Assembly (NCBI GenBank): GCA_964573135.1
Contig: CAZNIO010000003.1
Span: 10,881-74,880 of the forward strand
Reading direction: 5' to 3'
Source of the DNA: an uncultured Gammaproteobacteria bacterium
Lineage (GTDB): Bacteria; Patescibacteriota; Patescibacteriia; UBA2196; GWA2-42-15
Length of the DNA stretch: 64,000 nucleotides
Shown here: positions 1,762-51,705 of the stretch, in pieces
Layout: each line of letters starts with the position of its first letter
Position numbering within the stretch: position 1 is the first letter of the stretch
Notes under the pieces: model-generated
The model's database searches: none
Told to the model about the DNA's origin: nothing
Seen by the model: only the letters and a program-made list of their open reading frames with translations
Made by a program: the position numbers and the translations under genes

Positions 1762-1766
1762 ATATG

Positions 1767-3302: not shown

Positions 3303-3305
3303 GTG

Positions 3306-12018: not shown

Positions 12019-12390
12019 TTATATTTCTTGTACATTTAAATTCGTAATGTTTTTAAAATCACGCACATTGCGTGTTATAAGAGTACTACTTGTGAAAAGA
12101 GCCGTAGCAGCGATTACACTATCTGCTGTTTTGGTCCCATACATCTGACGAAGGAGTCCGGCCGTGCGTGCAATTCTTGAGTCAAGTGGAATAATAGCAA
12201 CTGTTTCAAGCAGTTTTTCTATTTCCATTGATTCCCATGGGGTGAGACCATGAAAACCGAAAAGCTCAACCTCGGTTATTGTGGATATATATAACGGAGC
12301 GTTCTTAACTAAAATACCACCTAAAACAGAAACGACCGCTGGGTCGTCTTTTAAATAATAGATAATCGCATTGGTGTCTAGGGTGTGCAC
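12019..12390 (-). CDS. vapC: PIN-domain protein (VapC-like toxin)
   Basis: 123 aa. N-terminal MHTLDTNAIIYYL (conserved Asp), later acidic residues typical of PIN. Confidence 0.65.
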   Translation of the reverse strand: MHTLDTNAIIYYLKDDPAVVSVLGGILVKNAPLYISTITEVELFGFHGLTPWESMEIEKLLETVAIIPLDSRIARTAGLLRQMYGTKTADSVIAATALFTSSTLITRNVRDFKNITNLNVQEI

Positions 12391-21282: not shown

Positions 21283-22512
21283 TTATCTCATTTTTCTTCG
21301 AATGAAGGCCGGGATTTCCAGGTCTTCTCCACTGTCATCAAAATTCTCTTCTTCCTCTTTGCTTTTAACTGTAATTTTACTTTTTTTCCTGGCAGTGCTT
21401 TTGGTGTCTTGAGGTGTTTCAGCTTGACCATCGTATGGAGCGTCTTTACCAACCTGAGGCATATATGCGGGACCGGATTTTACGCTTTGTGAAAAAGCAT
21501 TTAAGCCGTCAAACTTGGAATCTCTTTTTTTGGTTTCTTCACCAAAGCCGGTAGCAATAACAGTCACCGAAACTTCATCTTTAGCAGCTTCATTAACGGT
21601 GGATCCAAAAATGATTTTAGCTCCAGTATCAACAGATGCAGTAATTAATCTAGCAGCTTCATTAACTTCATTCATACTTAGATCTTTGGGACCGGAAATT
21701 GTAAAGAGTACTCCTTTTGCGCCTTCAATGGATAATTCAAGCAAAGGTGAATCAATAGCGATTTTAGCAGCGTCAACTGCTCTGTTTTCACCACTGGCGC
21801 GTCCCATGCCCATTAGGGCTGAACCTGAATCTTTCATAACAGCCTTTACATCAGCAAAGTCAACGTTGATCAATCCTGGCTGAGTAATTAATTCTGAAAT
21901 TCCCTGCACACCTTGAGATAGAACGTCATCAACTACAGCGAAGGCGTCAAGCAAAGATGTTTTTTTATCAATAATTTGTAAAATTCTATCATTGGGGATA
22001 CTTATAATAGTATCAACTTTTGAACTTATTTCTTCAAATCCTTTATCAGCAATGGTGCGGCGCTGAGCGCCTTCAAAAGCAAAGGGTCGGGTAACTACAG
22101 CAACTGTCAAACAACCTAGGTCACGGGCGATTTCTGCAATAGCTGGGGAAGCTCCAGTGCCTGTTCCGCCACCCAATCCACAAGTAATAAAAACCATGTC
22201 AGAACCTTTAAGATTTTCACGAATTTCACTGGAAGATTCTTCAGCTGATTTAGTACCAAGCTCTGGGTTCATGCCAGCTCCTAATCCGCGAGTTACAGTC
22301 CGGCCAATGTGTAATTTATTTTTAGCATAACTTTGGTGAAGTGCCTGAGCATCGGTATTAATAGCCACAAAATCGACTCCGCGCAGATTCCCAGAGACCA
22401 TGCGATTAACCGCCGATCCACCGCCACCACCAACACCGACTACCTTAATCTTAGCAAAAGTTTCGATATCTGGCTTAACTTCAATCGTTTTTTTATTCTT
22501 TTTAGTTGCCAT
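21283..22512 (-). CDS. ftsZ: Cell division protein FtsZ
   Basis: GVGGGGGSAVNRM (tubulin signature GGGTGSG-like), 409 aa with an acidic C-terminal tail. Confidence 0.9.
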   Translation of the reverse strand: MATKKNKKTIEVKPDIETFAKIKVVGVGGGGGSAVNRMVSGNLRGVDFVAINTDAQALHQSYAKNKLHIGRTVTRGLGAGMNPELGTKSAEESSSEIRENLKGSDMVFITCGLGGGTGTGASPAIAEIARDLGCLTVAVVTRPFAFEGAQRRTIADKGFEEISSKVDTIISIPNDRILQIIDKKTSLLDAFAVVDDVLSQGVQGISELITQPGLINVDFADVKAVMKDSGSALMGMGRASGENRAVDAAKIAIDSPLLELSIEGAKGVLFTISGPKDLSMNEVNEAARLITASVDTGAKIIFGSTVNEAAKDEVSVTVIATGFGEETKKRDSKFDGLNAFSQSVKSGPAYMPQVGKDAPYDGQAETPQDTKSTARKKSKITVKSKEEEENFDDSGEDLEIPAFIRRKMR

Positions 22513-22652: not shown

Positions 22653-23930
22653 TTATGGAATTAATGATTTAAACCATTTTTTAGCTTTAACGCTAATTTC
22701 GGTAATTGATTGAATTTTTGGTAACTTAAAGTTGATTAATTTCTTGCCTGAAGCACCAACCAGTTCCTTTCCCCAAAAAGCCAAACCAACAGCAGTGGTA
22801 AATTCAAGGCTATTAACCTTATCAATGGCTGTGTGTATATTTAGTGGGTGGCCCAAAGATGCTGGTAGACGAAATCTCTTTTTGGCAACATCAGTAACAC
22901 CTGGCAGCTGCGATCCACCGCCAGTAATAACCACACCAGCGGGTAAGAGGCCTGACCGATCAATTTTTATAAGCTCTTTATCAACTAGATCAAAAATCTC
23001 TTCCATACGAGCTTCAATGATTTCAGCTACATATTTTAGAGAAACACTGTCTTCTTCAGTATCTGAAAAATCAGATAGATCAATTTCATCTTTTTTATTA
23101 ATATCATCTGAAACGGCTTGGCCATATTCTAACTTAACATCTTCAGCAACGTCGAGTGAGGTTCTAAGGCCAATGGCAATATCAGCCGTGATATGATTTG
23201 AACCAACTGGCAAGACGCTGGTGGTTAGCAATTCACCTTCTTCAAAAACAGCTATAGAAGTTGTTGATTCGCCAATATTAACTAAAGCCACACCAAGTTC
23301 CTTTTGCCTTTTGGTCAAAACACTTTCAGCATTGGCTAAAATAGACAAGACTAAATCATCAATCTCAGCTCCTGTCCTATAAACGGCTTTGGTTAAATTC
23401 TTAATTTGAGACGAAAGACCAAGAATAATCTGAGCGGTAACTTCTAATCTAATGCCAGTCATGCCGATGGGATCTTTGACGCCACTTTGATTATCTATGG
23501 TGAAGCTCTTGGGAATGACGTGCAATATTTCATAGTTGGGCGGGGTGGCCACAGCTTGAGCAGCGGTGACGACACGCTCGACATCATCTTCTTTGATTTC
23601 ACCGTTAGCCCGAGAAACGGTAACTACACCTTTGGATTCTTGGGTAACAATGTGTGAACCTGAAATACCAACAAAAACATTCTCGACAGGAGAGCCGATC
23701 ATTCTTTCGGTTTGCTCAAGACAAGCGGTAACTGATGAAACCGCGTCTTCAATACTAACAATAGTGCTTTTAGATATACCGACAGAGGGTACTTCGCCAC
23801 AACCGACGATATAAAAATTACCGTCTTGCTCATTGAATTGACCAGTGACGGATCTGACGTAGGCGGTACCAATATCGAGGCCTGTAATGAATTTTTCTTT
23901 CATATATGTGTTGGTGTTTAAATTATCCAC
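22653..23930 (-). CDS. ftsA: Cell division protein FtsA
   Basis: Actin-like ATPase (GLDIGTAYVR…, …VITGGGSQLPGV…), directly upstream of ftsZ. Confidence 0.85.
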   Translation of the reverse strand: MDNLNTNTYMKEKFITGLDIGTAYVRSVTGQFNEQDGNFYIVGCGEVPSVGISKSTIVSIEDAVSSVTACLEQTERMIGSPVENVFVGISGSHIVTQESKGVVTVSRANGEIKEDDVERVVTAAQAVATPPNYEILHVIPKSFTIDNQSGVKDPIGMTGIRLEVTAQIILGLSSQIKNLTKAVYRTGAEIDDLVLSILANAESVLTKRQKELGVALVNIGESTTSIAVFEEGELLTTSVLPVGSNHITADIAIGLRTSLDVAEDVKLEYGQAVSDDINKKDEIDLSDFSDTEEDSVSLKYVAEIIEARMEEIFDLVDKELIKIDRSGLLPAGVVITGGGSQLPGVTDVAKKRFRLPASLGHPLNIHTAIDKVNSLEFTTAVGLAFWGKELVGASGKKLINFKLPKIQSITEISVKAKKWFKSLIP

Positions 23931-24035: not shown

Positions 24036-24392
24036 TTAGCGAAAAATGTATGGCCAAAAGATCATTAAGCCAATGATTACCGCACCAAATGAGGCCAAGA
24101 GAACTGTGGCGGCCATAATGTCTTTTATAATTAAAATATAGTTGTGAATACGTGGTTTTAAAATATCTGAGAGATGTTCAAAAATTGTGTTCAGTGCCTC
24201 AAGAACTAAAACTGAGATAATAACGATTAAGAGAACTACTTTTTCAAGCTTGGCAAGACCGAGATAAAACATTAAAAAAATTATAACAACAGCGATGACA
24301 GATTGAATACGAAAATTTTGCTCTTGCCAAACAAATCTGAAGCCACGAATAGCATATTTGAAACTACGAATTAGTTTTCTAATTTTTAACAT
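24036..24392 (-). CDS. dgkA: Diacylglycerol/undecaprenol kinase DgkA family
   Basis: 118 aa, 3 TM, EALNTIFEHL motif. Confidence 0.7.
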   Translation of the reverse strand: MLKIRKLIRSFKYAIRGFRFVWQEQNFRIQSVIAVVIIFLMFYLGLAKLEKVVLLIVIISVLVLEALNTIFEHLSDILKPRIHNYILIIKDIMAATVLLASFGAVIIGLMIFWPYIFR

Positions 24393-24811
24393 AAAGTACG
24401 TTGTAGTAAGTTAGCGCCCAACTGCTCCTCTACTTTCTGCATTGCGTGCCTGTCTTTTTTCTTTTGATGATCATAGCCAACTAGATGCAACATGGCGTGT
24501 GTTAATAATATTGTTAATTCTTTTTTAATGGTGTGGTGGTAGAGGCTAGCTTGCTTTTTAGCAAGCGGGTAGCAAATAATAATTTCACCGTCAAGATGAG
24601 TGCCATCAAAATCATAGCTTAAACTCAAAACATCGGTAGGCTTATTTATTTTACGAAGATCTAGGTTGAGTTTTTTCATTTCGAGCTCGCCAACTAGGAC
24701 AACTGATATGTCTATCTTCTTAATTTTGAGCACTCGGCTAATTTTTTTTAAAGCTTGAGATATATATTTAGTATCTACGCTGGCTTTAACCTTGTTGTTT
24801 ATTCCAATCAT
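24386..24811 (-). CDS. ybeY: rRNA maturation endoribonuclease YbeY
   Basis: HAMLHLVGYDH zinc-binding motif (HxxxHxxGxxH). Confidence 0.85.
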   Translation of the reverse strand: MIGINNKVKASVDTKYISQALKKISRVLKIKKIDISVVLVGELEMKKLNLDLRKINKPTDVLSLSYDFDGTHLDGEIIICYPLAKKQASLYHHTIKKELTILLTHAMLHLVGYDHQKKKDRHAMQKVEEQLGANLLQRTLC

Positions 24812-24813
24812 AA

Positions 24814-26187
24814 TTAGTGCATCAACTTAAAACTTGAAATAATCATATTAAAGGTTGTTAAAAAATTGATATCTTGCCTAAGACCAGCATTGTAGATAAA
24901 GCTATAAATATTATCACCCAGCATGACATGAGCCCGCAAGTCATCTTCTGATTTAAGCCCAGGCATATTATCAATTTGAATTTCTTGATTTTGGCCTGCT
25001 GACTGGCCGTATTGATCAAAATACCAGTCTTCAATAGAGCCATGCTCGCCCTGGTTTGGTTCAACTATAACGGCAATAAATTCGTCAGTAGGGGCGTAGA
25101 AATATGCATTTTCTTCTGTTCCCCTTTTTTCCCAGGCAAGCGGGTAAAGTAAATTATATTTATACTTATTATTAATAAAGGTAGCCATGCGATTTGAATT
25201 AAACAGCTTGGCGTCACCGACAATTAGGGGGTCATACACATTGGTGACTTCAAGGCCATCAGCGTAGCTGTCACCATCTGTGTCAGCGTTGTTCTCGTCT
25301 GTACCAAAAAGATTTTCTTCTAAATCGCTTAAATCATCGTTATCCAGATCACTGGCTGGAAAAAATTCTTGTACATCATAGATGCCGTCATCTGGATATT
25401 CACCTATGTCATAAGATAAATTGTCTTCGCCTGTAAATTCAAAGTTGGCCAAAATTTGCGTATAGACTTGTGATAGCGTTTGGTTTTTGGGTTTAGTAAA
25501 GATCAAATTAAAAATATTTTCTCCTCGGCGACTGTAAATTGAATAGCCTCCAGCTTCTTCAATATATTTATAGGCTGAGACGTCTGCCAACTCAAAAATT
25601 TCTGACTGGTCGCTGTATGTGGAATTAGTATTAAGCCAGTCTTCAAGGCTTTCTTCTTCAGAAGTTGAGAAAACGGCGAAAGTTAGATGGATTGTATCGG
25701 ATATACCTTTTAAACTAAAAGCTTCTTTGGCAGTTGGATAATTAGATAAAATGTCTTCTTTTGTCCATTGAGATGGGTACTTGAATTTGTACCCATAAGG
25801 ATCATTTGAAATGTGTGTCCAAGTGTCAAGAATTAAAAGATCTTGATCACTATTATCCTCAACTGGCGGAGGGTTGTCCTCTGGCTCTCCTGTTGTGACT
25901 GGCTCTTCCACCTCGGCTATTGGCGTAATAGTTAGCGGTTGTTCATCTTCTTCGACACTACGCAAAAAAAGCCAGGCAGCTAAAATCATTAAAATGCCAA
26001 GAGCGACAACAATCGCAACTCCAATGACGACGGTTTTTTTTGTTCCTGTGAGCTTTATGTGATGACCTGCAGAAGATGGTCGAACAGATAAAAACTTTTG
26101 AGGTATAGTCTTAACTTCAAAGTCTTCAGTAATTATATCATGAGGCAAATTTACCTGGGCTATTTTTTCGTCTTTTTGTTTTTCCAT
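24814..26187 (-). CDS. Single-pass membrane protein with acidic extracellular domain and DxDxDG motifs (paralogue of 26187..27380)
   Basis: TM VVIGVAIVVALGILMILAAWLFL. Contains TDGDSYADGLEVTNVYDPL. C-terminal …IISSFKLMH parallels the neighbouring paralogue. Confidence 0.6.
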   Translation of the reverse strand: MEKQKDEKIAQVNLPHDIITEDFEVKTIPQKFLSVRPSSAGHHIKLTGTKKTVVIGVAIVVALGILMILAAWLFLRSVEEDEQPLTITPIAEVEEPVTTGEPEDNPPPVEDNSDQDLLILDTWTHISNDPYGYKFKYPSQWTKEDILSNYPTAKEAFSLKGISDTIHLTFAVFSTSEEESLEDWLNTNSTYSDQSEIFELADVSAYKYIEEAGGYSIYSRRGENIFNLIFTKPKNQTLSQVYTQILANFEFTGEDNLSYDIGEYPDDGIYDVQEFFPASDLDNDDLSDLEENLFGTDENNADTDGDSYADGLEVTNVYDPLIVGDAKLFNSNRMATFINNKYKYNLLYPLAWEKRGTEENAYFYAPTDEFIAVIVEPNQGEHGSIEDWYFDQYGQSAGQNQEIQIDNMPGLKSEDDLRAHVMLGDNIYSFIYNAGLRQDINFLTTFNMIISSFKLMH

Positions 26188-27380
26188 TAGGGTAAAAGCT
26201 TAAAACTACTAAGTATGTATTCAAAGTCTGCCTGGTGCTCAGTTGAGCGCTTTGTAGCAATGTAGCGGAACATATAAGTATGTCCGTTGCTTGATGTTAA
26301 ATAGTTAGTACCAAAAACGGTTGAAGTTGGGGTATTATCTGGCAACTTGCTTGTTTTATTAACTAATATATAGCCTTGGTCGCTTTCTGAGATGGTATAT
26401 GCAATATCTGGTGAAACTGGATCTGTTTCTTCAATATCTACGACAAGATAAAGCTTAAGCTGATTAATATTATCATTATATCTTAAAATGTTGCCGGACT
26501 CGCTTTCAAGCACCATGCCTTCTGGCAATTGAACTTCAAATTTGTGTGTAGTATTTTTATAATAACCCGGCTTACTATCAGCTTCTAGCGGATCACGATC
26601 ACTCAAAAGTTCCTCTTTGTCGTCCATGCTGTCACCATCAGTGTCGGCTTTGAGCGGATCAGTGTTGTATACTTCTACCTCTTCTCGATCAAATAAACCA
26701 TCACCATCAGTATCTGAACTACTGGTGCTGGTACCATAAATCATCTCATCTTCGTCAGATAATCCATCACCATCTGAATCTTTTGGTGAATCAGATGGAG
26801 GTATATAAAGGTCTTCAGCATCATCTACTGTATCACCCAAATTATCTGCTTCTGGGGTTTGCGTGTCATCAGTTTCTTCATCTAGATATTCGTAAGGATT
26901 AGTCAAATTAGGATTTTCTGATGGGGTATTGTCACCTCGCGACATAAACCACCAAATTGCAGCGGCTACAGCAACACAAACGAGTAGGATAATAACAACA
27001 AGGAAAACAATATTTTTACCTCCCTTGGGTCGCTGAGAGTGGTTTGGCGTGAGCTGAGAATCTGGAACAACTCCACTTTTAGGAGTAAAAACCGAGGGTG
27101 TAGCTTTTATAGCTGGCTCAATCGGAGCTTGCGGAACTTGAGCGCCTTCTGCCTGGGGCTGGACTGGAGCAGGAGTTGGTGTGGGGGCAAGACCGGTAGC
27201 CGTTTTTTGAGCCTCGGGCGTGGCACCTGGCGTAGCAAAAATATCATCTGGTTCTTTAGTTTGTGCTGGCTCGCCAGCGTTGGGCGCAAACTCTGGGGCT
27301 GGCTTAGTTCCTGGTGTAATTGGATCACTGGGAACACTGGCTGGGGCATTTTGTTGCGGGGCTACTTTGTCTTCAAACAT
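26187..27380 (-). CDS. Single-pass membrane protein, Pro/Ala-rich cytoplasmic N-terminus, extracellular domain with repeated DxDGDG motifs
   Basis: TM IVFLVVIILLVCVAVAAAIWWF. Contains DSDGDGLSDEDE, DTDGDGLFDREE, DTDGDSMDDKEE. C-terminal …ILSSFKLLP. TAATG overlap with the downstream paralogue. Confidence 0.6.
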   Translation of the reverse strand: MFEDKVAPQQNAPASVPSDPITPGTKPAPEFAPNAGEPAQTKEPDDIFATPGATPEAQKTATGLAPTPTPAPVQPQAEGAQVPQAPIEPAIKATPSVFTPKSGVVPDSQLTPNHSQRPKGGKNIVFLVVIILLVCVAVAAAIWWFMSRGDNTPSENPNLTNPYEYLDEETDDTQTPEADNLGDTVDDAEDLYIPPSDSPKDSDGDGLSDEDEMIYGTSTSSSDTDGDGLFDREEVEVYNTDPLKADTDGDSMDDKEELLSDRDPLEADSKPGYYKNTTHKFEVQLPEGMVLESESGNILRYNDNINQLKLYLVVDIEETDPVSPDIAYTISESDQGYILVNKTSKLPDNTPTSTVFGTNYLTSSNGHTYMFRYIATKRSTEHQADFEYILSSFKLLP

Positions 27381-27402
27381 AATATTTTGAATTTAATTTT
27401 AA

Positions 27403-30400
27403 TTAATAGGCTGATTGGATTGAATTATATATTAAATTATATGTACCAGGAGAACATGGCTGTACAAAGTTGGTGCGATAATGACTATTAGCGGGTTGCC
27501 AGCCGGTATTTGAATATTCCATATTAGCATAGAGATCATAACTATTGCCATTACTACCGGATTTGTAATGGAACATATGCGAACCTGGCTCACACTTAAA
27601 GTTTTTTGCTTCAAGATCCCAACATTCCTTATTATACACGTCATCTGGGCAGTTAGTGCCTTCATTTAATGGATCAAGTAGCAGACTGGCTTTAATTTCA
27701 GAAGACAAGGTGGATGGCCAAGAATCCCAAAGTGAAACACTTTGACCCTGCAAGTAACTACCGGCAGATAGGGTTGGATAGCTTGTGGCGCCTGAGGCAA
27801 CACAAATTTCACTGCGAGGATCGTCGAATATATATTCTGGACAATCAGAATCTGTGTGGCAAGCTAAGTTTTGACTGAGACTACAATGGCCACGATAAAG
27901 TTCAAGATGATATGACATTTCGCCAATACCGCCAATTCTCCTGGCATCACGAGCCAACTTGTCTTTGGGTGCCTGGCATGATCCAGTGCCACACTGACTG
28001 TCTTTAGTACACCAAGTATCACTATTAGTACATAAACGTAGATTTTCACCTAAATTAGCATTAAACACAAAATTTTTATAAAATCTTTGGAAAACTTCTC
28101 TTGTAATGGGGTTAGGGAGTTCATCTATTTTGTTTTCTTCACCCTTTTTAACAGAATATGAAATTCGAAAAATATTAGTAAATATATTATGACTACCAGT
28201 GGGATTAGTATCAACTGCAGTGGGATTAGTATCAACTGCAGTGCCAATAAATGTGTCTTGACTAACACTTAAGGCGTCGTAATTATCAACTTTTAGCATG
28301 GAGTGTCCCCCTGATTCACCCATATATTTCTTGTACCAAGCAGATGGTGACAGATGTTCTGAGTTACTATAAATTCTGATACCAACAACGTCGGTGTTAA
28401 GTTGACAACTGGTATTGGCAACACAATCTTGATTGGCCTGACAAGGAGTCAGGCTATTTTCACACCAATGAGTATTATTATCTTGACTTTGAGGGAAAGA
28501 AAAGAGGAATTCTTTCATAACTTTACGACAATATCCAAGTCCACAGCTACCGTACCCCGCACAAACTGCGCCATGGTTAGCCCCACCAATGCAAGTACCA
28601 TTTGTTTCTCCAAGAATGGTACCTGGAATTGCCAAAGCCGGCAGATCGTCAGTATCTGAACCAAGACATACACACTCCCCCCTTGGGCAATCAGAGTTGT
28701 CGGGACAATCACTGTCGTCAGCGCAAGCAAGTCCAGAATCTTGGCAATACTTTTCACTATTGCCAAAATCCCTGCAATAGAAAGCTGAAAATGTCATATC
28801 ATGGCAAAATCCAGATGCACAATTGGAGAGACTGTCGTTAAAGGGGAAAGCCTGGTCGAAAGAAGGCCATGGATTCTGACAAATAAAGTTAGTGATAGTA
28901 ATGGCTTGGCTGGCAGAGCCATAATTTGGATCGCCATCATCTGGATCAAAGCCTGTAACTATCAGAGTGGTATTACCGCTCTGATCAACTGGAGTGACCT
29001 CTACTTCTTCGGTGTCGGTGGCTGATAAGATAATAAGGCTTTGTGAGGAAGGATTTTCTTTCCAAGCAAAATCAGCTACCAGCAAGTTATCTGATATATC
29101 TCTGGCTGTAGCTAAATAACCATGCTGATTGTCGGCGACGCCTGGATTGACATCGTCTGGGCAGCCATTGAGGCGAGTAACGCAGGTAAAATAGTCATAG
29201 GCTGTATCCTCTTTGGTTGACTCGTCGCTACCTGCACCACTGGTTATATTAACATTGACATGATTTATATCGCAAACATTTTTACCTACGGTAAAGAGTC
29301 CGTCAGTATAGTCATTTTCCATAATGCCACCAAGAACGCTTTTGACTCCATTGCTCTTCCCAGCGACAAAAATACGATGTGTGACTGAGCTGTCTGGTTG
29401 CCCAAGTAAATCACTTGGCCTAAAATATGTGACTGTCTTGCCGTTTACGTTGTGGGCTGTAACCTTGCCATCAACTGGACAATAGGTACCGCTTTGAGCA
29501 AAACTCTCTTTAGATAATAGATTGCGGAAAAAAGCAATAACTCTATCTTTTAAGGTGGGGTTATAGACATTAGCGGGTGGCTGTCCATCACAACCACGCC
29601 CATCTGTACGCAAATATTCAAGTTTTAAGGTAGTTGAATTAATAGAATTTAAGTTCATCTCTCTATCAAAGGTGAGACTAACCATGGCATTACGGCAGGC
29701 GTCAGTACCTGTTGGCGAATAACTTAAAATTGAAGGACTTGGTGATTTTTGGCAGGTACAATTAGCATCGGGATCACACCAGAAACCTTGCCAGCACATA
29801 TTGTTATCAGCATCACAAACAGGCTGGTTACTCAAATTTGAATCACAGGGCGCTCCTTCGCCACCACCTGCAATTGTGAATTTAAGCCCATTGCTGGGAC
29901 AGCTTGCCACTGTAGCGATAACGTCGCCAGTGCTAGCGCTATCTGGAACTTGAGTAGATATGTTGGCGTCAAGCCAATTGGAAGTAGCAGCTGTAATATT
30001 GTTAAAAGTAACTAAATCTTTGGTAGTACCAAAATTACTACCTGAGATACCAACAGCATCGCCAGGCTGGCCTTGATATCTGCTAAGTGAGCAAATTCCA
30101 GGAATATTATCTGTAATGCCATTACAATTAGACGTTACTGTGAAATTCCCGTTACCATTATTACTTTGTACTGTATTCAATCCATAAGCATCTGTTAGTG
30201 TAACCACATGAGAACCTTGGCTGACCACTGGAACCTCAACAATGACCTGAGTGTCTGTCCAGGAAGAAGAGCATGGATAAAGACTAACCTGGGTACTGCC
30301 AAAATTAATACTACTGCTTTGCCCTTTTGATTTAAAATAGCAACCTTGGATGGTAGTCCAGCGACCAGCAGGGCCATTATCTGGACTTAGACTCTGAATA

Positions 30401-33400
30401 ACCGGGGTACACCTGTCGGCTTCAATATCACAAACGCTACCAGGACAATTTTGGTCACAAACACCTGGCGCAAGTCGGCAAGAATCAATATTAATATTTA
30501 ATGATCCACGAGCAAATTTATTTTCGTCCAAATTAGTGGCACGCACGTAAACAGAACCAGCTTGTGTACCAGAGGTTATAATAGCATGAGCGTCATCAGC
30601 ACCATCTTCTTGGGCGTCAACGCCTAAGTCTGGGTCATCAATGCCCCACTGCCAATCATATTCTTGGCTAATTAAGGCACAATTAGTTGAGGCTAAAGGA
30701 GCAACGGCATCAGCACGGTAGTTACCAGCCACATTCGCTCCGTTTATTATATAATGAGGTGGTTCAACGTAAACTCTTTCAATCGGACAGGGCGCTGCAT
30801 CATTTTTAGTCTTAAAGTGCCAGATATATGGGTTTTGCATTGGCACATTGTCAACAAGACTGCTAACTCCAGTGGTGATAGTTACCTGATAGGTAGTATT
30901 GATCGCTAAGTTGCTGTCTGGGTCCAATCGAAAACTTTTACTACCGGCAGTTGTTAGAGCGGTAGCTAGATGAGCGGAGTTAACATTTTGGCAAGTGTCA
31001 TCATCGCACTTCTGCATGAAAATATTTGACGAATTAACTGAGGCTGGATCAAGGTCGATGTTAAAGTTGGCTGAGACAATAGTGTTTAAGCAAGCGTCTC
31101 TTGAATTACGAAAAGGATTAGCACTTGGTATCACATCAATGACACACTGGCCATCAAGTGTTGGCGCCGTGCCTTGACAATCGCTGTCGCGAAAACAACG
31201 ATTACCATGGTTGTCACCACCATCACAAACCAAGAGACATTGACTATTTTCTACAACGCCAGGAGCGTTAGAACAGCTTGTGGTATCAAAATAGCAACTA
31301 ACATCCTGCCCGGTAATTGGATCTGTACTTCCCGAAGAGTAGCATAATAGATTACCACCAACAAAACCATGATCCTGGCATTCACCAGGAACATTATTTA
31401 AATCACATTCCTCGCCTGGATCAATAACATTGTCGCCACACTCCCACACATTAAAAAATATACCGTTGCTTTGTCCATGATCAGCGTTGATTATAGCTGG
31501 TCCGTCTTTTGCGCCATTTGGGACAATAACTCCTTTAATTAAATCATTGGTCCAATTATTAATATCTGTGACTTCGAATGGAACTCCAGGAGTGAAAACA
31601 ACTTGAGAAGTTGTCATACCATCTAAATCAGCAACATTAAGGGGTAATAGACGAGTGCCACCTAAGGTAAGATTTGTTCCCGGCGGGCCCTGATCGGGAT
31701 TGATTGACCAAAGACAGGGGCCAGTGGCTTCACCTGGAGTGATATAAAATTCTTTGGAATTGCTAGGTGGTACGTTATTACCACTGGAATAGTTAATAGC
31801 CAAACTGACTTGTGGCCGATCTCCCTGATTAAACTCCGCAGGAACGGTGGTACCAACAGCTCGGTTACTATAGCCTGCACCAACTTGAGCATCTTTTGAA
31901 TCAAAATTAATATATTCAATGGTGGCTGGCTGCTCTTGAGTTCCGGTGAAACAGTAGCCACTGAGAGTCAAGCAGTCTCCAATAGGACCCTGATCTTTGC
32001 TCAAATGGGTAATATATGGGGCACAGACGCAAGCTGATAGATCAGTGACGCCAAACTCCCATGACTTGGCAAGGGCTGTTCTATCGGCATTAATAATTTT
32101 ATTGGTGACAACATTGACATAGTAGCTGGTATTTTCAACTAAGCCACCAGTGGGTATAAACTCAAAAACACGATAATTATTACTAATATTATTTCCATCG
32201 ACATCCACAATACGAAATTCTCCAAGAATATTTTCAGAGGTACTACGATCAAAGGTTGTGCTTGTTTTACCATCTTGGTCAGGAGCTAATATATATGTAG
32301 AAGGTCCGTAACCCTCCACACCTATATTAAGAGTGACCTCATCATAATACATACTTGTATTAAATGTAATACTGGTGCGGGTGTCTGGGCAGGCGTTAGT
32401 TCCAGTCGGATAATATCCAGCTACTCCAGGAACTCTATCATTGGTGGTAAACCGCCAGGTGACGGGTTCCAGCATTTTGTTATTACATAGATCAGTTACG
32501 TCCTGGACGGTAACTTGATAGGCAGTAAAAGCATCAAGCAAATTAGGGTCTTCTAAATAGAATCTAAAGCCGTTGTTTTTAATAACAAGATGGATAAGAT
32601 TATTGGCAATTTGAGTTAAACTACCGTCGCTTTCAACTTTCTGAAAATAGAGTCGTCCTGGATATGGATTAATGCCATTAACGTCAAGTATGCTGGTAGC
32701 ATCTATATTTTCTGAAAAAGTAACGTCGACAACAGGATCACGAGAAACATTCATATCAGGGTTGGCGTCATCAATTCTTGGATAAGCGCTAACAATAAAT
32801 GGGTCAACCTCATCTCCTTCGTTACCAACAAAGAAATTCCATTGCACACCAGCTGATGAAGCTTCATCACAGTCTGCCCCTATGGAACAAGATCTTAAGA
32901 AAAGAGGTTCGGGAGAGGCATCTTCAATGCTTGAAGGCATATCATATTCGTGATTGTGTTTTTTGCCAATGGCAATAACTTCCCGGTTATCAAAAGTACT
33001 ACTCCCATCACTACCGAGCGGTGAATAAACTAAAACATTACTGCGAGCATCCCAGTTGCCCTGCTGAATGCCCTGAATGCCGGCAATGGCAGCTATTTTT
33101 AAATTGTCAGCGTTATGTGCATCAACAATGGTACTTATATCGACATTTCTATTAAAAATAGTTTGAACTTTACTACACCAATGTACGTTGCTTTTCTCTT
33201 CTGGCAAACCATTGCTAAGTGGTGCTCCATGAGAGGTATGAACGGCATCTACTACAAACTCTGACATACTGGGGCCAATGGAACACACACAAGGCGCGCT
33301 TGTGATACCACAACTCTCATCGCATAAATATCCGCTTCCATCATCAAGGCACCTTGAACAACCATAACACTGCTGGGCTTGGCAAATCGGCGCATTAGAG

Positions 33401-33792
33401 CCTTGACCGCCTTCAAGAACCTTAAAAATATATTGAATAATGGCAAAAGCCATAAAGATGATAATCAGGCCAATGACGGTATTGACCAGTATTTTTTTGG
33501 CTTTCTCAATTTTCTCAGAATTGCCACCAGCAGTCATCCAGACAAAACCACCGTATATAATGAGGCAAAGGGCCACAATGCCGAGAACCCCCAAGATAGC
33601 GCGGATAATTCTGACAACAGAGATACGAATATCGGTGGTAGACAGGCCCGTACCTTGACCGTAATTAACGCCAAACATATCATCGCTTTGAGCTAAAGTA
33701 GCTTCAGGCAACAAAAAAACAACGGAAAAAATAACAATAAAAATTGCCGTTGTGAGGATAATAAAACGTTTGGGTTTTAAAATCTCTAGCAT
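27403..33792 (-). CDS. Giant (2129 aa) Cys-rich cell-surface protein with N-terminal double-TM pilin-like (VirB2/TrbC-like) segment and at least four IPT/TIG domains
   Basis: N-terminal signal plus two closely spaced TM helices (…ILGVLGIVALCLIIYGGFVWMTAGG…/…VIGLIIIFMAFAIIQYIF). IPT/TIG-like blocks (PYITHLSKDQGPIGDCLTLSGYCF, PCLWSINPDQGPPGTNLTLGGTRL, PVIQSLSPDNGPAGRWTTIQGCYF, ICSLSRYQGQPGDAVGISGSNFG). Over 100 Cys in CxxC/CxDxxC arrangements. Confidence 0.75.
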   Translation of the reverse strand: MLEILKPKRFIILTTAIFIVIFSVVFLLPEATLAQSDDMFGVNYGQGTGLSTTDIRISVVRIIRAILGVLGIVALCLIIYGGFVWMTAGGNSEKIEKAKKILVNTVIGLIIIFMAFAIIQYIFKVLEGGQGSNAPICQAQQCYGCSRCLDDGSGYLCDESCGITSAPCVCSIGPSMSEFVVDAVHTSHGAPLSNGLPEEKSNVHWCSKVQTIFNRNVDISTIVDAHNADNLKIAAIAGIQGIQQGNWDARSNVLVYSPLGSDGSSTFDNREVIAIGKKHNHEYDMPSSIEDASPEPLFLRSCSIGADCDEASSAGVQWNFFVGNEGDEVDPFIVSAYPRIDDANPDMNVSRDPVVDVTFSENIDATSILDVNGINPYPGRLYFQKVESDGSLTQIANNLIHLVIKNNGFRFYLEDPNLLDAFTAYQVTVQDVTDLCNNKMLEPVTWRFTTNDRVPGVAGYYPTGTNACPDTRTSITFNTSMYYDEVTLNIGVEGYGPSTYILAPDQDGKTSTTFDRSTSENILGEFRIVDVDGNNISNNYRVFEFIPTGGLVENTSYYVNVVTNKIINADRTALAKSWEFGVTDLSACVCAPYITHLSKDQGPIGDCLTLSGYCFTGTQEQPATIEYINFDSKDAQVGAGYSNRAVGTTVPAEFNQGDRPQVSLAINYSSGNNVPPSNSKEFYITPGEATGPCLWSINPDQGPPGTNLTLGGTRLLPLNVADLDGMTTSQVVFTPGVPFEVTDINNWTNDLIKGVIVPNGAKDGPAIINADHGQSNGIFFNVWECGDNVIDPGEECDLNNVPGECQDHGFVGGNLLCYSSGSTDPITGQDVSCYFDTTSCSNAPGVVENSQCLLVCDGGDNHGNRCFRDSDCQGTAPTLDGQCVIDVIPSANPFRNSRDACLNTIVSANFNIDLDPASVNSSNIFMQKCDDDTCQNVNSAHLATALTTAGSKSFRLDPDSNLAINTTYQVTITTGVSSLVDNVPMQNPYIWHFKTKNDAAPCPIERVYVEPPHYIINGANVAGNYRADAVAPLASTNCALISQEYDWQWGIDDPDLGVDAQEDGADDAHAIITSGTQAGSVYVRATNLDENKFARGSLNINIDSCRLAPGVCDQNCPGSVCDIEADRCTPVIQSLSPDNGPAGRWTTIQGCYFKSKGQSSSINFGSTQVSLYPCSSSWTDTQVIVEVPVVSQGSHVVTLTDAYGLNTVQSNNGNGNFTVTSNCNGITDNIPGICSLSRYQGQPGDAVGISGSNFGTTKDLVTFNNITAATSNWLDANISTQVPDSASTGDVIATVASCPSNGLKFTIAGGGEGAPCDSNLSNQPVCDADNNMCWQGFWCDPDANCTCQKSPSPSILSYSPTGTDACRNAMVSLTFDREMNLNSINSTTLKLEYLRTDGRGCDGQPPANVYNPTLKDRVIAFFRNLLSKESFAQSGTYCPVDGKVTAHNVNGKTVTYFRPSDLLGQPDSSVTHRIFVAGKSNGVKSVLGGIMENDYTDGLFTVGKNVCDINHVNVNITSGAGSDESTKEDTAYDYFTCVTRLNGCPDDVNPGVADNQHGYLATARDISDNLLVADFAWKENPSSQSLIILSATDTEEVEVTPVDQSGNTTLIVTGFDPDDGDPNYGSASQAITITNFICQNPWPSFDQAFPFNDSLSNCASGFCHDMTFSAFYCRDFGNSEKYCQDSGLACADDSDCPDNSDCPRGECVCLGSDTDDLPALAIPGTILGETNGTCIGGANHGAVCAGYGSCGLGYCRKVMKEFLFSFPQSQDNNTHWCENSLTPCQANQDCVANTSCQLNTDVVGIRIYSNSEHLSPSAWYKKYMGESGGHSMLKVDNYDALSVSQDTFIGTAVDTNPTAVDTNPTGSHNIFTNIFRISYSVKKGEENKIDELPNPITREVFQRFYKNFVFNANLGENLRLCTNSDTWCTKDSQCGTGSCQAPKDKLARDARRIGGIGEMSYHLELYRGHCSLSQNLACHTDSDCPEYIFDDPRSEICVASGATSYPTLSAGSYLQGQSVSLWDSWPSTLSSEIKASLLLDPLNEGTNCPDDVYNKECWDLEAKNFKCEPGSHMFHYKSGSNGNSYDLYANMEYSNTGWQPANSHYRTNFVQPCSPGTYNLIYNSIQSAY
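28197..28242. repeat. Tandem 21-nt direct repeat (~2.2 copies) inside the giant gene
   Basis: gggattagtatcaactgcagt x2 plus a partial third copy. Encodes TAVDTNP TAVDTNP in frame. Confidence 0.8.
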
Positions 33793-33824: not shown

Positions 33825-34274
33825 CTAACTGTTTAATTTTTCTTTAACAATCGTACTGACCAATTTACCGTCTGCTTGTCCCTTGGTTTTAGCCATAACG
33901 CTTTTTATAACTTGACCAAATTGGCTGGGGCCAACTTCGCCCATCTCGTCAATAACCTTTTGTGTAATTTTTTCAACTTCCTCTTGGTTAAGGGGGGCGG
34001 GTAAATATTTTTGGATTAATTCAATTTCTTGTTTTTCTTTGTCAGCTAGTTCTTTACGATTTCCTTTTGTATATAACTGAATTGCATCTTGTCTTTTCTT
34101 TTTTTCCTTATTTATAATACGAAGGGTCTCTTCATCTGACAATTCCTGTTTTTTGAGCTGAATCATCTCGTTTTGTAGGGCTGCTTTTAACAAACGCAAT
34201 AAATCAACCTCAGCTTGTTTTTTACCAAGCAGGGCCGTCTTCAGGTCAGATTCAATTGTTTGTGCTAGACTCAT
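33825..34274 (-). CDS. GatB/YqeY domain protein
   Basis: 149 aa. MSLAQTIESDLKTALLGKKQAEVDLLRLLKAALQN… is typical of the YqeY family. Confidence 0.7.
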   Translation of the reverse strand: MSLAQTIESDLKTALLGKKQAEVDLLRLLKAALQNEMIQLKKQELSDEETLRIINKEKKKRQDAIQLYTKGNRKELADKEKQEIELIQKYLPAPLNQEEVEKITQKVIDEMGEVGPSQFGQVIKSVMAKTKGQADGKLVSTIVKEKLNS

Positions 34275-34558
34275 CTCCTATTAGTTTGTGGGCTTGACCC
34301 TCGTTTGTAACCGCCTGAATTACCGAGAACATCGTCATCGCTTGGTAATTGACCAATTTTTTGCAAATATTCTCTTTTGGCTCTAACATATTGGCGACGA
34401 AGGGCTACCTCTTTAATTTGTCTTTTAGTCTTTGGTTTATTGCGATATTTAGTGGCTTTTGCACGAAAAATCACACGACTTTGTAAAACTCGCTTAGAAA
34501 AACGTCTGAGTAAGCCTTCAACTGATTCATTTTGCTTACGCTTAACTTCAACTGCCAT
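34271..34558 (-). CDS. rpsU: 30S ribosomal protein S21 (with basic C-terminal extension)
   Basis: MAVEVKRKQNESVEGLLRRFSKRV… aligns with the S21 N-terminus. Start moved to the internal Met (track ORF starts 34573). Confidence 0.75.
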   Translation of the reverse strand: MAVEVKRKQNESVEGLLRRFSKRVLQSRVIFRAKATKYRNKPKTKRQIKEVALRRQYVRAKREYLQKIGQLPSDDDVLGNSGGYKRGSSPQTNRR

Positions 34559-34699
34559 AAGGTGTATTAACACCTCCTTTCTTTAAGTAGGCCTGCATGG
34601 AGCAGGTAACTAAATATAGCCAAAAAATGAGCACTTATAAACAGGCTATTTGTAATTAAAATATACCAAAGAATGGCAAAATAGTCAAAAAAATATTGG

Positions 34700-35927: not shown

Positions 35928-37817
35928 TTAACCAGTCAAAACTATATCCAGCTCCGTTGCTGTTCTTTTAACAAAATCAATCATTGCTTGGTTGATTTTA
36001 ATTTGTTGGCTTACCTGCTCTCTTACTTCATGATTATTCCCCAGTTTATCCTTTTTGATTCCAATAGTTTTTGATAAACGAAAAATATTTCCGTCATCTT
36101 CCTTTATGGTTTTACGAGTGATAACTATAAGTGAGTCAATGCCTGCCTTCTCTTGCTCTTGATTATTTTTATTTTCTGCTAGTGCCTTAAATTGTAACAC
36201 ATCTGCCTTATCCTGATCCTGGGTACAATATTTATGTAATTTATCTAATTTTTCTTGTTGTGCCGGTTGCGCTAACCATTTTTTTAATCTAACAGATGGC
36301 GTAGCTACTGAAATTTTATTTTTTGTGTAAGTTAGTATCTTTTTTAATGGAGGACTACTATCTTTACGTTTTTCCAGATTTTCTTTATATAGCTTGGAGA
36401 TGTCAGCAAGTTCTTCAGCCAATGATTGAAATTCTAGCGAAGAAGTAAGGTACTTGTCTATTTTTCCTGCTAAGACTTGGGGCTCTTGCTGGTATAATTT
36501 TAACTCTCCTAATTGTGATTGATATCTTTTTAAGCCGCAGTTACTTAAAAAGTACTGTTTAAAAACTTTTTTAACATTATCGAAAATAGACTCATCAATA
36601 TCAACACCATTTTCTTTAAGCCTTGACTTGACCGCTGATATATCTTGAAGGATATTTTTCTTGGTTCTTTCTACGCCCATTATTTCGCTGTAATAATGAT
36701 AATGGCGGTCATTGTTTAACTTAACTTCATCGAGATCTATGTCTTTCCTTTGGGATGGGTCTTGAGGTATAATATCGTGATTACCGGGGTCAAGGCCGTC
36801 TCTAGTTATCTTAATAAAAAGAGCTAGTTTCTGGGCTTTTGATTCTTCGTCTTCTCCTTGCTGTGCGTCTAATAAGAGTTTTGTGGTTAGCTCTTCAGGA
36901 TAAAAGCAAAAAGTATCCTTGCACGAATTATAGGCTATGGTTTCTGTAAGCGGATATTTCTCACTTTCGGACTGTTCATTTTCTCCGGTGGCCACCAATT
37001 TAAATAAATCATAGGATAATCTTTGGCCGATAAAAAGACCTTTGCGATCTTTTTCCATCTTTTTTATTATGGATGAATAATATGCCGTGTGCTCATGGTT
37101 ATGATTCTCCCCTGAATAAAAGACGGTTGATTCCTCTTCCTCAAATTCTGGCTCGTCAGAATATTGGTAGAAAATAGCTTTATTAACAAGCATTGTAGAT
37201 AACTCACTAAAGTCATGCTTCTTTTCATGTGGAAACCAAGATACTACTATTTCTCTTGCTCTTTTTTCTATTTCTCCTTGATCATTTAAAGAAGAAAGTT
37301 TTTGGGCTTCTTGATTGATAAAATCAAAGAAACTTAAATTTTTTTCCTGACATTCACTTTGAGCTTCTGGAGGCATTTTGGGTAAAAAATTTTCATCAAT
37401 CATCTTGCGTGTGATTGTCCATTCCTCACTATATTTCTTTTCCCATTCTTTTTGGGGAATGTGCTCTACTGACTTATACCCAATCTCGGGCTGAGTGCCC
37501 TCGATTCTCTTCTTATCTAACTGTTCAACTAATGGTGCCTCGGCGGGTTGGTTTGATTTATTAATCTGTTGGTTGGCGTAAGTTAATAGTAACGCTAATT
37601 CTTCTTGCGTAATCTGCTGGCCGGGGATATGTAGCTTATTCATGAGAGGGGCAACTTCCTTTGGGCTTACTGTTGTTTCGTTGTTTGGCGCTAGATCAAG
37701 ACTATATTCTAATTCTTGTGCTTTTTGTAAAACAAGATCCTTAAGTTCCTGGTTGGGATCTCGTTCCTTGGGTGGAGGGTCCTTTTTTTCTGGCTGAGGA
37801 GATGCTGTTTCTATCAT
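35928..37817 (-). CDS. Hypothetical soluble protein (629 aa), acidic, no recognisable domain
   Basis: Long ORF in the same operon orientation as hisS and the MiaB-like gene. No TM, no motif I can name. Confidence 0.5.
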   Translation of the reverse strand: MIETASPQPEKKDPPPKERDPNQELKDLVLQKAQELEYSLDLAPNNETTVSPKEVAPLMNKLHIPGQQITQEELALLLTYANQQINKSNQPAEAPLVEQLDKKRIEGTQPEIGYKSVEHIPQKEWEKKYSEEWTITRKMIDENFLPKMPPEAQSECQEKNLSFFDFINQEAQKLSSLNDQGEIEKRAREIVVSWFPHEKKHDFSELSTMLVNKAIFYQYSDEPEFEEEESTVFYSGENHNHEHTAYYSSIIKKMEKDRKGLFIGQRLSYDLFKLVATGENEQSESEKYPLTETIAYNSCKDTFCFYPEELTTKLLLDAQQGEDEESKAQKLALFIKITRDGLDPGNHDIIPQDPSQRKDIDLDEVKLNNDRHYHYYSEIMGVERTKKNILQDISAVKSRLKENGVDIDESIFDNVKKVFKQYFLSNCGLKRYQSQLGELKLYQQEPQVLAGKIDKYLTSSLEFQSLAEELADISKLYKENLEKRKDSSPPLKKILTYTKNKISVATPSVRLKKWLAQPAQQEKLDKLHKYCTQDQDKADVLQFKALAENKNNQEQEKAGIDSLIVITRKTIKEDDGNIFRLSKTIGIKKDKLGNNHEVREQVSQQIKINQAMIDFVKRTATELDIVLTG

Positions 37818-39322: not shown

Positions 39323-39923
39323 TAAATACTTTAAGTCGACTTAACGGCCAGCCGCGGAGCCAGGTCTTGCCGATGATATCGCCGTCTTGGATGGAGCCAA
39401 ACATGCGTGAGTCAAGCGAAGCAGAGCGGTTATCTCCCATGATATAGTACTCATCGCTATCAAGCTCTAGACTTTCATTGCCTTGAGTGTAGGTATTTGG
39501 CAGATAGAGATCTTCATTTAAGGTAAACCCCTGGGGGTTATTGACATCGCTAATATTTATATGGCCATCTTTGACGGTAATGGTTTCACCGGGTAAACCG
39601 ATGATGCGTTTTATAAAATATTGTGAGCGGTCATAGGGATATTTGAAAACAATAACATCACCGCGCTCTGGCTCATTAAAGCGATATGAAATTTCATCGA
39701 TAATTAGATATTCATGATCATAGAAGTTGGGCTCCATGGAAGCGCCCTTAACATAGAAGGGCTGGATAACAAAGTAGCGGATGGGTATAATAATGACTAA
39801 AGAGATAATGATTACCTTTAGGGTCTCCCATATAAAATCCTTAAATTGCCCCTTAACTTTATCCTTATCGGTTTCGGGCTCGAAACTGGGCTCTTTTTCT
39901 TGGGGCTGTTGAATAAATGTCAT
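39306..39923 (-). CDS. lepB: Signal peptidase I
   Basis: TM anchor, catalytic GASMEPNF (Ser) and …GDNRSASLDSR… box. Confidence 0.85.
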   Translation of the reverse strand: MTFIQQPQEKEPSFEPETDKDKVKGQFKDFIWETLKVIIISLVIIIPIRYFVIQPFYVKGASMEPNFYDHEYLIIDEISYRFNEPERGDVIVFKYPYDRSQYFIKRIIGLPGETITVKDGHINISDVNNPQGFTLNEDLYLPNTYTQGNESLELDSDEYYIMGDNRSASLDSRMFGSIQDGDIIGKTWLRGWPLSRLKVFNDKVY

Positions 39924-40120
39924 AATAATAGATTAATAATTTGATAATTTAATGATACTTAGTTTTTCCAATAAATGGCATTTTTCCCCTAAAAAAAGGG
40001 TAATTTATACTCATACTAGCATATTTTTTTGATTGACGCAAGGCGCGAAATGGTGTATGGTGAAGTTAAAGATAAGCTAAAAAATTGCTTTATCGTAGAT
40101 TTTTGATAAAGTAAAAATTT

Positions 40121-51480: not shown

Positions 51481-51705
51481 ATGAAACAAGCTAAAAAATA
51501 TATAAAGTCATCATCTTTCTGGGATTATAAGATTGAGAAAAGGGCACTTAAAAATGAAAAAGTGAAAAAGTTTTGGTTGGCTAGAAAAATCAATATGGCG
51601 GACTGGCAAGGGATCAAGAAAAAAGACCTAGAAAAATATTTACCCGAACTTGATATCAGGCCGGAAATGAAAAATTTGTTAACTTTATTTTTGGAACATG
51701 CTTAA
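51481..51705 (+). CDS. Small hypothetical protein (74 aa), candidate AbiEi-like/antitoxin partner
   Basis: 8-nt overlap with the downstream AbiEii-like gene. Basic/charged. No clear motif. Confidence 0.4.
   Translation: MKQAKKYIKSSSFWDYKIEKRALKNEKVKKFWLARKINMADWQGIKKKDLEKYLPELDIRPEMKNLLTLFLEHA

Follow-up and report, generated by a model that had tools for sequence, protein, structure and literature searches.

Three co-oriented minus-strand open reading frames (ORFs) lie side by side in the 64-kb stretch of contig CAZNIO010000003.1 analysed here (the window): a giant gene encoding 2129 amino acids (aa), followed by the genes for proteins A (397 aa) and B (457 aa). This trio had been proposed by a previous reading of the letters alone (the sequence-only reading), and the ORF list and translations confirmed its coordinates and lengths (Table 1). 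The genes are tightly packed, with 22 nucleotides (nt) between the giant gene and A, a TAATG overlap between A and B that had likewise been reported, and a gap of 2 nt between B and ybeY. The giant gene alone takes up about 1% of a genome of ~1 Mb. The N terminus of its product is predicted to be a complete VirB2-type pilin of a type IV secretion system (T4SS), on which our tentative interpretation of the giant as a pilus adhesin turns.

The hydropathy profile of the giant N terminus reveals three hydrophobic segments, at residues 7-36, 55-90, and 97-129. In an AlphaFold2 model built on an alignment of 51 family N termini, a helix at residues 7-34 is followed by a low-confidence linker, a helix at residues 55-86, a 5-residue loop, and a helix at residues 92-129, with predicted local distance difference test (pLDDT) values of 88-96 over residues 60-120. 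The N terminus is thus not an ordinary signal peptide with a single transmembrane (TM) helix but a signal helix followed by a two-helix hairpin. Ala34 is conserved in at least 90% of the 51 homologues and stands just before Gln35, which would fit cleavage by signal peptidase I. The basic stretch EKIEKAKK opens the second helix of the hairpin, directly after the loop. Together with the acidic N-terminal segment, it suggests by the positive-inside rule a VirB2 topology, in which the loop would be cytoplasmic and both ends would lie outside.

Hidden Markov model (HMM) searches relate this hairpin to T4SS pilins. The Pfam family T4SS_pilin (PF18895) matches residues 63-122 with 32.6 bits in the whole protein and 36.3 bits in the N-terminal piece, above its cutoff of 26.6. 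The TrbC/VirB2 family PF04956 is covered over positions 11-98 of its 98 at 14.9-18.6 bits, below the cutoff of 27.9, and the NCBIfam Mbov_0395 pilin-like conjugal transfer model scores 28.6, below its cutoff of 40. When the 94-aa pilin module alone was searched against 5.8 billion proteins, all 98 matches were stand-alone PF18895 proteins of 57-197 aa with 45-66% identity, a few of the short ones being truncated gene calls. Some of them are named TrbC/VirB2 or pilin by the source databases, and 96 of the 98 carry the loop motif WMTAGG. While the small pilins (120-126 aa in the examples compared) stop ~6 residues past helix 2 of the hairpin (...VLENAT), the giant runs on from that point (...VLEGG-QGSN...), so that helix 2 is followed by 2,003 residues in the giant and by a median of 6 in its stand-alone relatives. 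A sequence-profile search of the PDB with the N terminus gave 0 matches. Overall, residues 1-129 of the giant are predicted to constitute a complete Patescibacterial T4SS pilin, consisting of a long signal peptide and a two-helix hairpin. The VirB2/TrbC-like character that the sequence-only reading had given this region therefore holds in a stronger form than claimed, as that of a full-length pilin.

By alignment, the pilin module is also the most conserved part of the giant, with 40-57% identity across the family as compared with 20-30% for the remainder of the protein. In comparison, conservation is poor in the single-helix TM anchors of A and B. All ORFs of at least 100 aa across the window were scanned for domains, and no second pilin module was found among them, leaving that of the giant as a single copy there.

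The remainder of the giant is rich in cysteine. We counted 87 Cys residues (4.1%) where more than 100 had been claimed; all but one, which falls within helix 1 of the hairpin, lie in the predicted ectodomain. A CxGCxRC-like motif in the membrane-proximal Cys cluster recurs in close homologues. The domain map was obtained by HMM scans of ten overlapping pieces and of isolated domains. The strongest match of the giant is to the immunoglobulin (Ig)-like family Big_5, with 86 bits overall, and three to four such domains had been overlooked previously. Of the four or more IPT/TIG domains in the sequence-only reading, two exceed the Pfam threshold, a third falls below it, and a fourth is indicated by internal similarity only, residues 588-790 aligning colinearly with the TIG pair at residues 1128-1310 (BLASTP E 2e-6). 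In total, the ectodomain is predicted to hold at least eight Ig-like domains of the Big_5 and TIG types.

The protein ends in a conserved C-terminal module that recurs in most family members and was modelled by AlphaFold2 with a pLDDT of 83 and a predicted template modelling score of 0.85. The model comprises an Ig-like domain and a mixed alpha/beta core with the motifs NPWP...YCRD...DDLP...IGIR, together with Cys-rich inserts, and it closes with a helix of 26 residues and a beta-rich end. The module matched no Pfam family, no PDB entry by sequence profile or by Foldseek, and no viral predicted structure in BFVD at E<=0.001. A profile of its most conserved sub-module, ~170 residues long, found 1421 clusters at 50% identity (1284 at E<=1e-10) among 1.84 billion representatives, and the best 150 of these 1421 clusters were nearly all proteins of 2-4 thousand aa (kaa) or fragments. 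Residues 1931-2104 were also considered as the head of a type IV pilin or GspG (motif KL.RD..R..DL...Y...YP...DP.N...Y.Y...Y.L.A..E). This was rejected for now, since hhalign gave a probability of 10% and 2 of 20 members matched T2SSG, with E 0.038. When type IV pilins were sought in the retrieved loci, two minor-pilin-like ORFs were all that emerged. The giant C terminus shows no LPXTG sorting signal with a hydrophobic tail, and no PrgB-type domain of Pfam or NCBIfam was found in any piece.

Proteins A and B are both single-pass membrane proteins with a cytoplasmic N terminus, an acidic linker after the TM helix, a C-terminal domain of ~125 residues, and the shared SSFKL-type ends described earlier (...LSSFKLLP in A and ...ISSFKLMH in B). 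Their DxDGDG repeats had been called calcium-binding-like. In A, three repeats match TSP3_bac (PF18884) with 42.8 bits, above the cutoff of 25, whereas no Pfam TSP3 match in B reaches threshold. In B, however, D280, D282, and D284 as well as D302, D304, and D306 are invariant across orthologues, and its repeats align with those of A by hhalign. The repeats of both proteins are predicted to bind calcium. Direct BLASTP similarity between A and B is confined to the repeats (E 8e-4), whereas their orthologue alignments match by hhalign with 99.2% probability (E 8e-20) over the TSP3 repeats and the C-terminal domain. By this comparison, A and B are true paralogues over that region and have unrelated N-terminal halves, so the proposed paralogy stands in part. 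The C-terminal domain of A gives a subthreshold match to PsbP (E 0.0011; 19.5 bits, below the cutoff of 23.5) and that of B one to PsbP_2 (E 0.038; 14.4 bits, below the cutoff of 27), besides a weak PsbP match. Orthologues of B share the cytoplasmic motif FEVKT(I/M)PQKFL ahead of the TM helix (aa 23-33), with invariant P29 and F32; this motif may be a sorting or interaction signal. Orthologues of A stand directly downstream of the giant in relatives L001-L006, and in more distant lineages A is shrunk to the TM helix and TSP3 repeats. TSP3 repeats also end a sulfatase/LtaS-like membrane protein (53600-55792, plus) and a VWA-domain protein (61969-63939, minus) of the window. They are thus not specific to the giant cluster and seem to serve the exported proteins of this genome generally as a C-terminal module.

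Table 1 Genes of the giant locus and predicted features of their products (positions in the window)
Feature	Residues	Position	Strand	Basis or remarks
rpsU, 100-aa ORF		34271-34573	minus	Reads as ribosomal protein S21; positional counterpart in relative L004 matches Ribosomal_S21
yqeY		33825-34274	minus	Pfam
Giant gene, 2129 aa		27403-33792	minus	ORF and translation
Protein A, 397 aa		26187-27380	minus	ORF and translation
Protein B, 457 aa		24814-26187	minus	ORF and translation
ybeY		24386-24811	minus	Pfam
dgkA		24036-24392	minus	Pfam
ftsA		22653-23930	minus	Pfam
ftsZ		21283-22512	minus	Pfam
Giant, signal peptide	1-34	33691-33792	minus	Ends ...ATLA, then Q; hydropathy and AlphaFold2 helix
Giant, VirB2-type pilin hairpin	55-129	33406-33630	minus	Loop TAGGN; PF18895 and AlphaFold2
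Giant, membrane-proximal Cys cluster C..C.GC.RC...	137-170	33283-33384	minus	Cys positions
Giant, Big_5 domain 1	~330-450	32443-32805	minus	PF13205, 37.6 bits
Giant, Big_5 domain 2, partial match	~526-580	32053-32217	minus	PF13205, 31.8 bits
Giant, two divergent TIG-like domains	588-785	31438-32031	minus	One at 16.1 bits, below threshold
Giant, Cys-rich linker	785-885			Precedes Big_5 domain 3; Cys positions
Giant, Big_5 domain 3	889-995	30808-31128	minus	PF13205, 55.2 bits
Giant, two IPT/TIG domains	1128-1305	29878-30411	minus	PF01833, 38.9 and 24.3 bits; cutoff 20.9
Giant, weak Big_5 match	~1352-1390
Giant, conserved C-terminal module	1560-2129	27406-29115	minus	Recurs in most family members
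Giant, most conserved C-terminal sub-module	1931-2104	27481-28002	minus
Protein A, TM helix	~118-149			Preceded by Pro-rich cytoplasmic tail, followed by acidic linker
Protein A, three TSP3 repeats	~199-262			Followed by C-terminal domain with subthreshold PsbP match
Protein B, TM helix	~47-79			Preceded by cytoplasmic motif, followed by variable linker
Protein B, TSP3 repeats	~278-321			Followed by conserved C-terminal domain

The trio is embedded in a housekeeping operon, rpsU-yqeY-giant-A-B-ybeY-dgkA, and not in a secretion island. In order, lepB, hisS, the gene for a 629-aa protein, and that for a MiaB-like radical SAM protein precede rpsU, and ftsA and ftsZ come after dgkA. The gap of 32 nt between yqeY and the giant gene contains no terminator-like site, and scans for promoters and terminators gave hints at consensus level only. 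The 629-aa protein between hisS and the MiaB-like gene (35928-37817, minus) is highly charged and rich in Lys, Glu, and Gln, with no Pfam match and no TM helix; its gene looks like a lineage-specific insertion, since hisS directly adjoins the MiaB-like gene in relative L001.

Homologues of the giant number 99, all of them from Patescibacteria and 1.3-3.7 kaa long, and nearly all combine PF18895 with Big_5 and/or TIG. Some carry VWA, LamG, CBM_4_9, fn3, Toxin_R_bind_N, and lectin-like modules. The source databases name such proteins "hypothetical," "Ig-like domain-containing," or "cysteine-rich repeat protein," and the exact giant sequence is also present on JGI, NCBI, and ENA metagenome contigs. 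By homology, the window giant is one member of a large family visible in databases. The same gene arrangement is found at homologues of 29-44% identity (relatives L001-L006), one of them on a 1.03-Mb contig. A scan of GTDB with one genome per species and the N-terminal alignment as query yielded at least 585 loci, of which the best 80 were examined. About 65 of these 80 hold a pilin-fused giant at lepB-hisS-rpsU-yqeY, usually as two pilin-fused genes, one of 540-1050 aa followed by one of 2000-3500 aa. One to three single-pass TSP3 proteins follow the pilin-fused giants wherever the retrieved flank extends far enough. Loci with a single giant occur in the lineage of the window and in a few others (L018, L066, L001-L006). 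Where two such genes are present, the orthologue of the window giant is the longer one, and the shorter is an extra paralogue with its own pilin module, on which ground we rejected an origin of the window giant by fusion of two such genes. Likewise, a mobile T4SS island was rejected because of the housekeeping flanks and the conserved synteny.

The labels in the ~65 giant loci are class ABY1 or generic Patescibacteria throughout. Named records are Kuenen-, Magasanik-, Komeili-, Buchanan-, Falkow-, and Uhrbacteria, which we take to belong to class ABY1, partly from knowledge of GTDB. Kuenenbacteria is placed under ABY1 in a published Table S1 (PMC12102498). By homology and synteny, class ABY1 has inherited the giant vertically, as a core gene at a fixed operon position, and homology also places the organism of the window in this class. 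We know of no cultivated member of ABY1 and of no demonstrated host. The obligate episymbiont of the sequence-only reading was an assumption about lifestyle and finds no support here.

The remaining ~15 of the best 80 GTDB loci each consist of 4-12 PF18895 ORFs in an array, with lengths of 113-476 aa that mostly fall under 250 aa. Among the arrays of the closest small pilins, some pilin modules carry extensions of 70-200 aa. On two unrelated Patescibacterial contigs (L007, 8210-12727; L008, 7161-11340), 4-6 small T4SS_pilin genes are preceded by an NTP_transferase and SBP_bac_1 pair. In each of these two arrays, the first pilin-module gene is extended, in L008 by a sequence with a PG_binding_1 domain.

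In a published survey, VirB2-like pilins of the PF18895 family are widespread in Patescibacteria and often arrayed, with a mean identity of 25% within arrays, and VirB4 is found in 2417 of 3035 assemblies (PMC12102498). The same survey states that "No adhesins, such as PrgB, were detected." A T4SS and pilin array are essential in Southlakia epibionticum, the only Patescibacterium tested genetically (PMC10633639; review PMC12857230). Neither the survey (PMC12102498), whose table gives PF18895 matches without their lengths, nor the review (PMC12857230) mentions pilin modules on giant proteins, and our full-text literature searches found no description of the fusion.

We favor the reading that the giant is a cell-surface adhesin carried on a genuine VirB2-type pilin, whose pilin module is incorporated into a T4SS pilus, and we assign this tentative reading a probability of about 0.4. 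In solved conjugative pili such as the F pilus, formed by TraA, the C terminus of the pilin lies on the outer surface. Since the giant contains a full pilin that is more strongly constrained than its remaining sequence, and since a pilin C terminus can point outward in this manner, we judge it most likely that the module is handled like a pilin. The main support for a role in a pilus would come from the completeness of the module, from constraint exceeding that on the rest of the protein and on plain TM anchors, and from the presence in Patescibacteria of T4SSs with no known adhesin. An adhesive or surface-appendage role would fit the Ig-like domains, the many Cys residues, and the adhesive modules of relatives. 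The narrower reading, that the giant serves the Patescibacterial T4SS pilus as its adhesin, as a VirB2 pilin that bears a binding stalk of 2,000 residues and sits at the filament tip or sparsely along the filament, is less likely than not.

Several observations weigh against incorporation into a pilus. No VirB4, VirB6, coupling protein, or small pilin was found among the scanned ORFs of the window. None of these was present within 10 kb of the giant gene in the relatives examined either. The small pilins nearest in sequence occur in arrays that adjoin genes for a solute-binding protein, a nucleotidyltransferase, and glycosyltransferases, again with no VirB4 within 10 kb. The peptidoglycan-binding fusion in L008 suggests that the hairpin can serve as a plain anchor. 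Foldseek comparison of the hairpin model with the PDB returned generic helical hairpins only (E>1), so the pilin assignment relies on HMM matches, topology, and sequence identity. Moreover, the T4SS review grants the Patescibacterial systems only the "potential to elaborate conjugative pili" (PMC12857230).

The pilin-derived hairpin may instead be simply a two-helix membrane anchor, with the giant remaining in the membrane as a surface fibril, independent of any T4SS and perhaps braced by A and B. In favor of this reading, the gene sits in a housekeeping operon, far from T4SS genes in all genomes examined. Likewise, the attachment of pilin modules to extensions of 70-3,600 aa, including a peptidoglycan-binding domain, is expected of a general-purpose anchor, and membrane proteins of the A/B type are co-encoded in the relatives examined. 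However, 40-57% identity across orders, a near-invariant WMTAGG..EK...AKK loop, and retention of the full pilin including the segment before the helices exceed the needs of an anchor, whereas the actual single-helix anchors of A and B drift freely. We regard a static anchor as a serious possibility that nevertheless falls short of an even chance.

The fixed position beside ybeY-dgkA-ftsA-ftsZ, and the synteny with rpsU-yqeY kept across the class, would be accounted for if the giant and the TSP3 proteins formed an envelope or division scaffold, that is, a surface-layer (S-layer)-like coat or wall spacer tied to growth and division and not to attachment. The best fold matches of the C-terminal module, none of them significant, are the S-layer proteins SbsB and Sap, and the TSP3 repeats on the LtaS/sulfatase-like and VWA proteins of the window point to a general envelope module. 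These S-layer matches, however, have E values of 0.02-0.6 and TM-scores of about 0.1, and they involve Ig-like domains only. S-layer proteins are typically poor in cysteine, unlike the giant with its 87 Cys residues. Furthermore, the exchange of adhesion and lectin modules among relatives suggests host-facing variation and not a lattice, and where genomes are compact, the order of genes says little about what they do. A scaffold is therefore improbable. Finally, the ectodomain could be an enzyme or toxin delivered to a neighboring cell, for instance to degrade its wall or to act as an effector, in which case the Ig-like domains would be a mere spacer. In favor of this, the 570-aa C-terminal module belongs to no known family and shows strong conservation, including invariant positions occupied by W, C, R, D, and P, and a preprint reports that giant genes in other bacteria that are predatory or have small genomes are implicated in cell-wall degradation (bioRxiv 10.1101/2023.11.21.568195). 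However, no piece matched a catalytic or toxin family of Pfam or NCBIfam and no structural match to enzymes was obtained, and this reading is very improbable.

If the giant does act as a pilin-borne adhesin, it would be exported by Sec and cut by signal peptidase I after Ala34, and its hairpin would insert so that the basic loop is cytoplasmic and both ends lie on the outer side. The disulfide-bonded ectodomain would fold outside as a long stalk, with the C-terminal module as the distal binding head. A T4SS encoded elsewhere in the genome would then draw the giant from the membrane pool and build it in among small pilins, either sparsely or at one end; as the ectodomain would already be outside, extraction from the membrane would pose no transport problem. 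Proteins A and B may act as calcium-dependent envelope partners that hold or space the structure, which is the weakest step of the scheme.

The window also encodes a 511-aa protein (4364-5899, minus) with two GILT-type thiol reductase matches and DsbA/thioredoxin-like matches, a candidate disulfide maker for Cys-rich exported proteins such as the giant. In relative L003, DsbA and glutaredoxin genes stand just upstream of yqeY.

Comparing the giant with known systems, its closest counterparts are the Patescibacterial VirB2-like pilins, which belong to the same family by HMM and share the signal peptide, hairpin, and loop motif at the identity given above. However, these pilins are 100-160 aa long, often in tandem, and often near virB4, whereas the giant adds a 2,000-aa ectodomain and is encoded in a housekeeping operon. 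Its pilin module is also far more conserved between lineages than the array pilins are among themselves. Two-domain pilus adhesins such as FimH and PapG (chaperone-usher pili) and large minor pilins such as TcpB and CofB (type IV pili), all of them 300-550 aa long, similarly join a pilin module to a displayed binding domain. The logic is shared with the giant, but the pilin folds and assembly machines are unrelated, and the giant has 2,129 aa and a filament role that is proposed only. The calcium-dependent giant adhesins SiiE, LapA, and BapA likewise combine a long Ig-like stalk with a distal binding region and a link to calcium. These proteins use type I secretion, are retained at the outer membrane, are poor in cysteine, and bind Ca2+ through their own domains, whereas the giant is presumably Sec-exported in a monoderm, is Cys-rich, and has an N-terminal pilin anchor, with the TSP3 repeats of its locus on partner proteins. 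PrgB, a surface adhesin of Gram-positive conjugation systems, has the role proposed for the giant, namely cell contact for a monoderm T4SS; it is anchored to the wall through LPXTG, whereas the giant is held by a pilin hairpin and shows no PrgB-type domain. Extended VirB6 is, like the giant, a T4SS membrane component with a very large hydrophilic domain, but it is polytopic, is not a VirB2, and is encoded inside the T4SS loci of Gram-negative T4SSs (PMC12857230). The Pam pili of candidate phyla radiation (CPR) bacteria are also CPR-specific surface filaments of Ig-like folds implicated in host contact (bioRxiv 10.64898/2026.03.03.709456). In contrast to the giant, Pam pilins are found chiefly in Saccharimonadia and Microgenomatia, and their assembly relies on donor-strand exchange with chaperones anchored in the membrane. 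The Pam pilus was rejected as the system of the giant because it is a different one; the words VirB2 and T4SS have no match in the Pam paper (bioRxiv 10.64898/2026.03.03.709456).

Other parts of the window hold genes of separate interest. Grouped on the minus strand are genes for an AMP phosphorylase-like protein (7884-9380), a form II/III-type RuBisCO large subunit (9840-11078), and an IF-2B-family, ribose-1,5-bisphosphate isomerase-like protein (11069-12001), which we take to be the nucleotide-salvage RuBisCO pathway of CPR bacteria and archaea. At 688-4244 (minus), a 312-aa protein with the ATP-binding PPDK_N domain is followed by proteins of 511 and 357 aa, each ending in a phosphoenolpyruvate (PEP)-utilizer mobile domain, which looks like a split or duplicated arrangement of PEP synthase or pyruvate phosphate dikinase. 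Genes of defence or toxin-antitoxin type are scattered along the window, namely an AAA_14/DUF4143 ATPase, an AbiEii nucleotidyltransferase toxin, and a PIN-domain protein (44173-45378, 51698-52375, 12019-12390); the first lies in a stretch of low guanine-cytosine (GC) content (0.26-0.29, 44-45.5 kb) beside tRNA-Glu. The coding strand switches at ~39900-40150, between a minus-strand block reaching 39923 and a plus-strand block starting at 40121. There the GC skew changes from about 0 to +0.2, and the divergent lepB/LytR-family junction is kept in relatives. No cluster of DnaA boxes was found near this switch (~40 kb), so a replication origin there is not supported.

If the giant is the adhesin of a T4SS pilus, it would be the molecule by which ABY1, a large class without cultivated members, chooses its host or surface. 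To our knowledge, it would also be the first case of a conjugative-type (VirB2) pilus with an adhesin in the form of a pilin fusion. Even if the module is only an anchor, the family shows a reuse of VirB2-type pilins to carry surface proteins of 0.2-3.7 kaa, and surveys that treat PF18895 matches as small pilins would overlook the giant fusions. For the C-terminal module, the fold is predicted well and has no relative of solved structure. Much of bacterial diversity may belong to Patescibacteria, and the giant is a concrete candidate for the part through which their T4SSs make contact.

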